This document shows positions 12,985-13,160 of a stretch of DNA of 16,197 nucleotides, one piece after another. Both the position numbers and the translations under genes were made by a program. A model generated the notes under the pieces. It saw only the letters and a program-made list of their open reading frames with translations, was not told where the DNA came from and did no database searches. How positions within the stretch are numbered: the first letter of the stretch is position 1; the number at the start of each line of letters is the position of its first letter. Source of the stretch: a virus; the IMG/VR virus record IMGVR_UViG_3300006162_000592; one strand, given 5' to 3'.

Positions 12985-13024
12985 CGCAAGACAACAAAAA
13001 AGCCGCCTGACTTCGGCGGCTGGT
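12985..13024 (-). terminator. intrinsic terminator between the leader ORF and the first tRNA
   Basis: Minus strand has a 7-bp G/C-rich stem AGCCGCC / GGCGGCU with loop GAAGUCA, followed by UUUUUUGUUGU. On the + strand the hairpin is preceded by an A-run, not followed by a T-run, so it is orientation-specific. Confidence 0.65.
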
Positions 13025-13051
13025 TGCGATCTCTGTGTTTGCGTCTATTGC

Positions 13052-13123
13052 TTACGCGCCCACACCTTCGCCCCAGCCCATTGCTGAGCTACTAGAGGAC
13101 GATAATGTGGATATGAATGCCAT
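13052..13123 (-). CDS. leaderless 23-codon leader peptide MAFISTLSSSSSSAMGWGEGVGA, rich in the codons decoded by the downstream tRNA array
   Basis: The ATG 13123..13121 lies 6 nt after the -10 hexamer. Codons are ATG GCA TTC ATA TCC ACA TTA TCG TCC TCT AGT AGC TCA GCA ATG GGC TGG GGC GAA GGT GTG GGC GCG TAA. That is ATA, TTA and all six Ser codons consecutively, each once, plus an extra TCC. It is below the track's 60-aa cutoff. Confidence 0.6.
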   Translation of the reverse strand: MAFISTLSSSSSSAMGWGEGVGA

Positions 13124-13160
13124 GTCACTATAGTACCCGAAAGCCGGGAAATTGTCAATT
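13124..13160 (-). promoter_or_regulatory. sigma70-like promoter P2 (TTGACA - 17 nt - TACTAT) driving the leader ORF and tRNA array
   Basis: Minus strand reads aaTTGACAatttcccggctttcgggTACTATagtgacATG. The -35 is at 13158..13153, the -10 at 13135..13130, and the ATG 6 nt after the -10 means a leaderless transcript. It shares CAATTT...TACTATA with the other two copies. Confidence 0.55.

Follow-up and report, generated by a model that had tools for sequence, protein, structure and literature searches.

The stretch of DNA analysed here is the virus record IMGVR_UViG_3300006162_000592 (16,197 nucleotides, nt), referred to below as the window, and coordinates given without a further label are positions in it. 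The locus of interest is read on the minus strand, where an array of six class-II tRNA genes (12303..12979) is preceded by a promoter, a short open reading frame (micro-ORF) rich in serine codons and an intrinsic terminator, together called the leader element below. An earlier note, made from the letters of the window, had read this arrangement as an attenuator-like feedback loop on tRNA supply. In transcript numbering the ATG of the micro-ORF is nt 1, and a window coordinate equals 13124 minus the transcript nt.

The sigma-70-type promoter (13130..13158, minus strand) consists of TTGACA at 13158-13153, a 17-nt spacer and TACTAT at 13135-13130; it matches the consensus at 10/12 positions and is the top promoter-like site within 11500-14000, which bears out the near-consensus TTGACA-17-TACTAT promoter described in the earlier note. 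From the -10 box to the ATG there are 6 nt, and the predicted transcript start lies at or next to the ATG. The micro-ORF (13052..13123, minus strand; ATG at 13123, TAA at 13054-13052) has 23 codons plus the TAA, lacks a Shine-Dalgarno sequence, begins with this 5'-proximal ATG and encodes MAFISTLSSSSSSAMGWGEGVGA. Its sequence is as the earlier note quoted it, ATG GCA TTC ATA TCC ACA TTA TCG TCC TCT AGT AGC TCA GCA ATG GGC TGG GGC GAA GGT GTG GGC GCG TAA, with codons 8-13 forming a run in which each of the six serine codons occurs once, and to that description a further TCC at codon 5 has to be added. The control codons (13085..13114, minus strand) are ATA (13114-13112), TCC (13111-13109), TTA (13105-13103) and the serine run TCG TCC TCT AGT AGC TCA (13102-13085), and jointly they require every tRNA of the downstream array.

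Beginning 30 nt past the stop of the micro-ORF, where a strong minus-strand intrinsic terminator had been announced, there is indeed one at 13021-12995 (12995..13021, minus strand), made of AGCCGCC, the 7-nt loop GAAGUCA and GGCGGCU, i.e., a 7-bp GC-rich stem, followed by U6. The first tRNA gene starts 15 nt after the T-tract, not 5 nt after the terminator as first claimed, and no second promoter lies within these 15 nt.

Codon usage was taken from 3,892 codons of the window's own genes, in which TTA (2.8 per 1000), ATA (5.4) and TCA (3.1) are the rarest of their codon families. In the capsid-like ORF of 615 codons, which the earlier note had called MVP, the reported absence of TTA, ATA and TCA holds (0 of each), while TCT occurs 3 times and not once. 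Drawn with the codon usage of the window, 22 random codons would need all six array tRNAs with a probability of 3.4e-6 and include at least 7 serine codons with a probability of 4e-5. The one-to-one match proposed between leader codons (seven serine codons, ATA and TTA) and tRNAs (four for serine, Leu-UAA and one with anticodon UAU) therefore stands, with the first of these probabilities (P = 3.4e-6) attached to it.

Conservation of the leader in relatives

Relatives were found via the protein of the adjacent gene, a peptidyl-tRNA hydrolase of the PTH2 family, plus one metagenome and one genome DNA-pattern scan. This gave 15 distinct leader versions (the window, L016, L018, L025, L027, L031, L032, L033, L036, L037, L039, L041, L042, L043 and L044), which share the PTH2 gene at 68-91% identity, on contigs that reach 90-450 kb. 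The same tRNA set is conserved in the relatives, with the UAU tRNA present in all arrays. The genes upstream of the leader vary among lineages, and because of this the block of promoter, leader, terminator and tRNA genes is the conserved unit. Other searches returned little: megablast of 12300-13400 against 50,697 GenBank phages gave no match and hence no annotated relative in that set, an exact-protein lookup of the window's PTH2 gave no record, a scan of IMG/VR with the terminator pattern gave only five unrelated terminators, all without tRNAs, and IMG/VR scans with two leader/spacer patterns found only the contig L001, whose deviating leader is discussed later. The PTH2 relatives L002, L010-L014, L034 and L035 have no serine tRNA array nearby, and inspection of L014 found no TTA leader ahead of its lone Leu-UAA gene.

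In 15/15 leaders the promoter is kept, the distance from the -10 box to the ATG is 6-13 nt, and no Shine-Dalgarno sequence is present. The frame runs through the serine codons to a stop (TAA, TGA or TAG) in every one of them, giving ORFs of 23-30 codons, and it is the only frame that is open from the 5' end (15/15). Length differences before or inside the serine run are 3, 6 or 9 nt, i.e., multiples of 3, and variation within serine codons is mainly at the third position (TCC/TCG/TCA, TCT/TCC/TCG, TCA/TCC/TCT). The flanking residues are variable, as the C-terminal halves AMGWGEGVGA, TRGWDSGVRV, PRRAGVDIRVETV and NGGSGGVSDSG illustrate.

The codon content itself is kept to a degree that supports the earlier reading, since ATA and codons for all four serine isoacceptors are present in all 15 leaders and TTA in 14 of them. 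TTA stands at codon 7, at codon 6 (L033) or at codon 4 (L042), and because its position differs among lineages it is kept as a codon and not as a fixed structural position. The one leader that has neither TTA nor any other leucine codon, that of L041, precedes an array of the order UAU-Ser-Ser-Ser-Ser, and no Leu-UAA gene was found by ARAGORN or Rfam in its 8.3-kb locus.

A separate observation concerns CUAGUAGCUC (window 13085-13096, minus strand), in which AGU-AGC is invariant at synonymous sites in 15/15 leaders and also in the L001 type that lacks the ORF (L001 3628-3637); a part of it (AGCUC) is an arm of the inner hairpin described below. The order AGU-AGC makes a UAG in the +2 frame (UAG UAG in the window), which, speculatively, would stop ribosomes that frameshift at hungry serine codons before they come to region 2.

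Alternative structures of the leader RNA

Four regions of the leader can be combined into three pairings, 1:2, 2:3 and 3:4, the last of these being the terminator. When the leader of the window is folded without constraint, the minimum free energy structure contains both the terminator and a hairpin, P1 (pairing 1:2; 13059..13111, minus strand; transcript nt 13-65), between the strand with the serine codons and the G-rich 3' part of the ORF (z -3.55). Within P1 lies the inner hairpin AGCUCA-GCAA-UGGGCU (13090-13075, minus strand), which hides the start of region 2; it is 100% paired in the relatives, shows A-U to C-G covariation, and has GCAA, GUAA, GAAA or UUCG as its loop.

A stalled ribosome was represented by a mask covering about 30 nt, with its A site on ATA, an early serine codon or AGU, and the RNA was folded up to the terminator loop. 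Under this mask 15/15 leaders switch to one long hairpin in which region 2 is paired with region 3. In the window this predicted antiterminator (pairing 2:3; 13018..13078, minus strand; transcript nt 46-106) is a 60-nt hairpin of four helices, namely an outer helix H1 (GGCUGG on the 5' side, CCAGCC on the 3' side), H2 (GCGA:UCGC), H3 (GUGU:ACAC) and H4 (GCGU:ACGC). The pairing of GGCUGG with CCAGCC, which the earlier note had offered as a candidate antiterminator, is thus the outer helix of a longer structure that forms in every masked leader. The 3' end of the antiterminator overlaps the 4-7 basal nt of the 5' arm of the terminator (AGCC in the window), and its 5' strand lies wholly within the ORF in 15/15. 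The stop codon is found at the apex of the antiterminator in 14/15 leaders despite ORFs of 23-30 codons, with L042 having it just inside the 3' strand. Since the start of region 2 (UGGGCU) is at the same time the 3' arm of the inner P1 hairpin, pairings 1:2 and 2:3 are mutually exclusive, and pairings 2:3 and 3:4 are likewise. According to the masked folding, the transcript remains accessible from nt 46 onward when the stall is at codons 4-11.

Statistical support was sought for each of these pairings. Compared with dinucleotide shuffles, the 2:3 segment has z values of -2.1 to -5.1 in 12 of 13 leaders (window -3.66), and -1.7 in L041. In a MAFFT alignment of ten leaders (alignment A5), column-wise covariation is informative for the terminator and the inner hairpin; for the terminator, 96.9% of cells are paired and two pairs covary, and only 2 of 500 shuffles scored as high. 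The outer helix of the antiterminator is invariant in these ten leaders and hence uninformative. An alignment-free permutation test was carried out with seven representative lineages, in which the duplex energy of all region pairs was computed for the 5,040 permutations. For pairing 2:3, the true assignment had the best total energy (1 of 5040), while pairing 3:4, which served as the positive control, ranked 4 of 5040 and pairing 1:2 ranked 36 of 5040. Complementary strands that differ from those of the window are present in L042 (GGGCGG/CCGCCC and CGUCG/CGACG), L041 (GCGGCGGU/ACCGCCGC) and L036 (GGCGG/CCGCC and GCGUC/GACGC). The AGCC common to antiterminator and terminator never varies and the upper terminator stem covaries, which is what a double pairing constraint predicts. 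The pairings 1:2, 2:3 and 3:4 each co-evolve. A structure that competes with the terminator, which the earlier note had been able to suggest only by eye, is therefore present in 15/15 leaders; its stability exceeds that of shuffles, and its two strands co-evolve.

It was also considered whether the leader could be a degenerate tRNA, as GTAGCTCAG resembles a D-arm. This was rejected: no tRNA model matches over 12985-13123, and the motif is an arm of the tetraloop hairpin.

A putative attenuator, its rivals and known systems

Each sequence-level feature of a leader-peptide attenuator (a short 5' ORF, cognate codons, a terminator, an antiterminator and the appropriate geometry) was found at the locus. 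Judging from the sequence, we consider it quite probable that the element is a ribosome-mediated (leader-peptide) transcription attenuator ahead of a phage tRNA operon, and the feedback reading with which we started has withstood both computational tests that the earlier note had set for its refutation, the search for a competing structure and that for conserved codon content in homologous loci. Leaderless translation, stalling, regulated read-through and kinetic competition are what we infer from this anatomy. The spacing of 6-13 nt between the -10 box and the ATG is what points to leaderless initiation, and indirect support for translation comes from the frame-preserving indels, the third-position variation of the serine codons and the leaderless-looking gene start past the array.

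The proposed mechanism would be as follows. Transcription would start at the ATG or within a few nt of it, and a ribosome would translate the 23-codon leader, in which ATA, TTA and the serine codons would be read fast only if the six tRNAs encoded downstream, or host equivalents, were available. Their scarcity would stall the ribosome over codons 4-11, the AGCUCA/UGGGCU hairpin would be unwound and region 2 set free, and its pairing with region 3 would then hide the basal AGCC of the terminator, allowing the polymerase to enter the tRNA genes. With fast decoding, the ribosome would reach the stop codon at the apex and melt or occupy the 5' strand of the antiterminator, with the result that the terminator would form and a leader of about 125 nt be released. 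In untranslated group-A transcripts, P1 would form and transcription would terminate. The net effect would be a negative feedback of decoding capacity on tRNA synthesis; the phage probably produces the array tRNAs only if their shortage brings ribosomes to a halt.

As to what is sensed, we lean slightly towards a decoding-capacity sensor, in which the leaderless micro-ORF would test ATA, TTA and every serine codon, and any failure would switch on the matching tRNA genes. The cause of such a failure could be a host of 67% GC that barely supplies these tRNAs, or host tRNAs could be lost to degradation or cleavage in the course of infection, which would make the element an inducible counter-defence. 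The host is likely one of the Acidobacteriota. The leader L043 was recovered from the end of a 1.48-Mb contig (CAVVIP010000006.1, region 1-4455) of an uncultured Acidobacteriota metagenome-assembled genome, with 67% GC and 0 TTA and 1 ATA in 791 codons, compared with 55% GC in the phage. In this contig the phage similarity ends exactly at the 3' CCA of tRNA-Ser(GCU), with bacterial genes beyond. This suggests either prophage integration at tRNA-Ser(GCU) or an assembly join at that tRNA, and both readings of the junction point to the same host. In a lysogen, the phage leader would drive a hybrid host tRNA-Ser gene. The phage-like part of L043 comprises a gene end, the promoter, the micro-ORF and the terminator, and the bacterial genes (67% GC) include one like cytochrome bd subunit II and one like sigma-70.

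Several observations weigh against an attenuator of this kind. The 15 leaders are mutually related and hence do not amount to 15 independent trials. In the MAFFT alignment of ten leaders, the column-wise covariation of helices H2-H4 is no better than that of shuffles, and RNAalifold found no consensus for 14 of the 2:3 segments; these alignment-based nulls arise because the lineages, as folds of the single sequences show, use shifted registers and their divergent ends are misaligned by MAFFT. Concerning the switch itself, P1 is weak in divergent lineages, which would read through when untranslated, a stall at the last two serine codons would mask the outer helix of the antiterminator, and the overlap with the terminator arm is only 4 nt in most lineages. 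Even under the stall mask, the complete terminator is favoured at equilibrium in about half of the leaders, and for this reason the switch must be kinetic, as in classical attenuators. As there is no Shine-Dalgarno sequence, translation rests on leaderless or near-leaderless initiation, and the distance between the -10 box and the ATG varies (6-13 nt).

The last point on this side is the L001 type (L001 = L015 = L017), which keeps the terminator and the array, although the ORF is broken and no antiterminator is predicted. Its PTH2 is 71% identical, its leader has about 70 extra nt at the 5' end and is without GGCUGG and CCAGCC, and its frame (ATG TGG GGG AGA ACC CGC ATT TAA ... AGT TCA ACT AGT AGC TCC) is stopped after 7 codons. 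This type carries the array with a broken micro-ORF, which shows that the array can be kept without an intact one. From its sequence the L001 type reads as a degenerate or rewired leader. A recoding of TAA, which would explain the in-frame stop, was rejected, as at least one neighbouring ORF (the HNH gene) ends in TAA. That gene (L001 3833-4282, likewise in L015 and L017) is an ORF of 149 amino acids (aa) between tRNA-Ser(GCU) and the remaining array, and it is HNH-endonuclease-like by its Cys/His pattern alone. In the same lineage, the TAA of the leader directly precedes an A6 run (AUU UAA AAA AGA).

Of the other explanations, the one that fares best is that the leader acts as RNA only, either as a small RNA (sRNA) gene or as a constitutive structured leader; the tRNAs would then owe their synthesis to leaky read-through or to phage-specific promoters, and the ORF would be incidental, its pyrimidine-rich UCN strand being a hairpin arm. 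The leader is highly structured, its inner hairpin has stable GNRA or UUCG tetraloops, CUAGUAGCUC stays invariant at synonymous sites even in the L001 type with its broken ORF, and terminated attenuator RNAs can serve as sRNAs, as with rnTrpL (PMC6614838). When the locus was tested as an sRNA gene, promoter, structure and terminator were present, and a conserved ORF was found to fill the 5' 72 nt. This explanation leaves unaccounted for the 5'-terminal ATG in frame with the serine run in 15/15 leaders, the indels in multiples of 3 together with the third-position variation of the serine codons, a stop codon that follows the hairpin apex as the length of the ORF changes, and a TTA kept at three positions and lost together with Leu-UAA in L041; nor is there another promoter in the 15-nt gap between the terminator and the first tRNA. 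It seems unlikely to us as a full account, and the terminated leader of an attenuator could additionally act as an sRNA.

Somewhat less likely again is a translation-coupled attenuator that senses another signal, be it serine starvation (the charging of tRNA-Ser), the general capacity for translation or host shut-off; its correspondence with the array would be secondary. Its anatomy would be identical to that of the tRNA-sensing attenuator we favour, classical attenuators read the level of charged tRNA, which depends on both the amino acid and the tRNA, and a run of 6-10 serine codons is a classical signature of amino-acid sensing. However, more tRNA-Ser would not relieve serine starvation, and the four serine isoacceptor classes in each leader, the single rare ATA and TTA, and the joint loss of TTA and Leu-UAA fit the sensing of particular tRNAs better.

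A functional serine-rich micropeptide whose position before the array is coincidental would agree with the conserved ORF and with the recurring motifs I-S-S-L-S(n) and G-x-G-V, but little of the peptide is conserved apart from the control codons, the conserved GGUGUG belongs to an antiterminator helix, and the co-evolving pairings 2:3 and 3:4 are left unexplained, which makes it very improbable. Finally, a promoter-like site, a small ORF and an upstream gene's terminator might have come to lie side by side by chance, which could be argued since such ORFs and promoter-like hexamers occur frequently and the pattern was picked after being seen; this is hardly credible and is effectively refuted by the comparative data, i.e., by 3.4e-6 per 22-codon ORF, by 15 distinct leaders with differing upstream genes and by the co-evolving pairings.

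The closest known systems to the attenuator proposed here are the leader-peptide attenuators of amino-acid operons (trpL, hisL, leuL, thrL, ilvL, pheL) in Proteobacteria and Actinobacteria (PMC1183508, PMC3082878, PMC1262725). As in the trpL/hisL type, there is a short promoter-near ORF with a run of regulatory codons, there are overlapping pairings 1:2, 2:3 and 3:4, and the stop codon is so placed that an unstalled ribosome blocks the antiterminator. Unlike in that type, the regulated genes are tRNAs and not enzymes, the element is phage-encoded, and the control codons correspond one-to-one with the array, calling for four isoacceptors of a single amino acid and including one rare codon each for two further amino acids; furthermore, there is no Shine-Dalgarno sequence, the ORF is apparently leaderless, and the antiterminator overlaps only 4-7 basal nt of the terminator. 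In Escherichia coli, the pheM leader attenuator controls pheST, the phenylalanyl-tRNA synthetase operon. That case shares with ours the leader-peptide attenuation of a component of the translation apparatus and not of biosynthesis, and it differs in that it concerns a synthetase and not tRNA genes, phenylalanine only, an ORF led by a Shine-Dalgarno sequence, and a chromosomal locus.

In mycobacteria, leaderless polycysteine short ORFs have been described as cysteine-responsive attenuators of operonic expression (bioRxiv 10.1101/834739). Going by the available part of that report, they likewise have a leaderless 5' AUG and consecutive codons of one amino acid, and the rate of their translation controls the downstream operon; the difference is that they are described for cysteine, and that tRNA genes, a terminator/antiterminator switch and mixed synonymous codons do not figure in that part of the report. 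T-box elements resemble the leader in that the status of tRNA is sensed and a terminator/antiterminator switch lies in the leader RNA. They differ in binding uncharged tRNA directly, without a ribosome, in having a Stem I, a specifier loop and the T-box sequence, and in controlling synthetase, transporter and biosynthesis genes. A cmscan search of 12000-13500 at E values up to 10 gave only tRNA-clan and chance-level matches, with no T-box (RF00230), riboswitch or known sRNA. Lastly, bldA of Streptomyces (tRNA-Leu-UAA) makes the TTA codon a regulatory device in a high-GC host (PMC10732093). Regulation there likewise hinges on how much of a single tRNA is available to read a very rare codon, but the bldA tRNA limits the translation of TTA-containing genes, whereas our proposal is that the rare codon exerts feedback on transcription of the tRNA gene itself.

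In our full-text searches of the literature, no description of leader-peptide attenuation acting on tRNA genes came up, and such genes go unmentioned in a survey paper on premature terminators. The novelty lies in the wiring, namely tRNAs as the regulated genes, control codons that match the array one-to-one, and a phage as the carrier. We know of no case in which tRNA genes are controlled by leader-peptide attenuation. Bacterial tRNA operons are generally held to be controlled at initiation (growth rate, stringent response), and attenuation has been described in amino-acid operons and in a single synthetase operon. If the proposed mechanism is true, the locus would provide the first known example of a tRNA operon governed by leader-peptide attenuation, as well as a naturally occurring multi-input sensor of individual isoacceptors. 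The matching of tRNA gene expression to codon demand is poorly understood, and a leader that samples the exact codons of the downstream tRNAs would give direct, isoacceptor-specific feedback, which would explain how a phage of 55% GC supplements a host of 67% GC only when needed. It also bears on why phages carry tRNAs, i.e., on codon compensation versus escape from host tRNA depletion, and, with its length of about 170 nt, the element would be a small module taken from nature for synthetic circuits meant to signal or remedy a lack of particular tRNAs.

The tRNA array and its neighbours

The array on the minus strand comprises tRNA-Ser-GCU (12979-12890), tRNA-Ser-CGA (12888-12797), tRNA-Ser-UGA (12684-12593), tRNA-Ser-GGA (12587-12498), tRNA-Leu-UAA (12492-12404) and a class-II tRNA with the anticodon UAU (12399-12303). 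The first five were called by ARAGORN, while the UAU tRNA was missed by it in the window but called tRNA-Ile(tat) in relatives, and the six genes with their anticodons are therefore as the earlier note had listed them, the last being real but non-canonical. It is 97 nt long and has a long variable arm, the discriminator A73, an encoded CCA, a 4-bp D stem and a 5-nt D loop; counterparts are found at L018 3584-3672, L041 2752-2846, L039 3439-3539 and in others. Its first base pair covaries, being A1-U72 in the window and G1-U72 in relatives. A long-arm tRNA that reads AUA is unusual. The combination of A73 and a long arm resembles leucine identity, which would recode AUA, and isoleucine, leucine and serine are all candidate identities. 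In L039, an extra tRNA-like gene (3262-3341), for which ARAGORN gives the anticodon as '???', lies between Ser-UGA and Leu-UAA.

Between Ser-CGA and Ser-UGA the array holds a spacer element of 112 nt (12685-12796, minus strand). Elements of about 110 nt bounded by UCGCAGC...(C)CUGCGA are conserved at this window position, at L016 1204-1071 (minus strand) and at L001 4283-4381. The window copy contains two TTGACA hexamers, the L016 copy has the T-arm-like GCGGGUUCGAACCCCGC, and the L001 copy directly follows the inserted HNH endonuclease ORF. Rfam has no match to the element, and at z -0.9 its fold shows no significant stability. A degenerate tRNA, an internal promoter and the remnant of a homing site are candidate explanations.

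Directly after the array, the window encodes the PTH2-family peptidyl-tRNA hydrolase (11992..12273, minus strand; PF01981, E 8e-9), whose start, TGGTATTCT-ACTTAC-ATG, is leaderless-looking. Whether the first gene past the array is PTH2, as in the window, or a different ORF, as in relatives, a conserved -10-like box stands 6-7 nt before its start and no Shine-Dalgarno sequence is present (window 11992-12300 and L016 640-690, both minus strand; L036 3420-3460; L025 1690-1720), and in L025 its start reads TAGTATCCT-AATAGCA-GTG. By the look of these starts, leaderless genes seem common in this phage group. A peptidyl-tRNA hydrolase beside tRNAs and a stall-prone leader suggests a translation-rescue module. 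In L033, a gene like IS605 OrfB/TnpB (6422-7507) is present about 3 kb downstream of the array.

On the other side of the leader, the minus strand of the window carries two adjacent genes (13338-15430) of 381 and 316 aa that are built of repeats of about 60 aa with the motif F..Y.EA...V..LG..S...W......P.NIP..P...Y...GW.GW..FLG, and that have sub-threshold Pfam matches to INT_rpt, an integrase repeat unit. A predicted membrane peptide of 41 aa (MTLLAHIAIIW...) is encoded between these repeat genes and the leader promoter.

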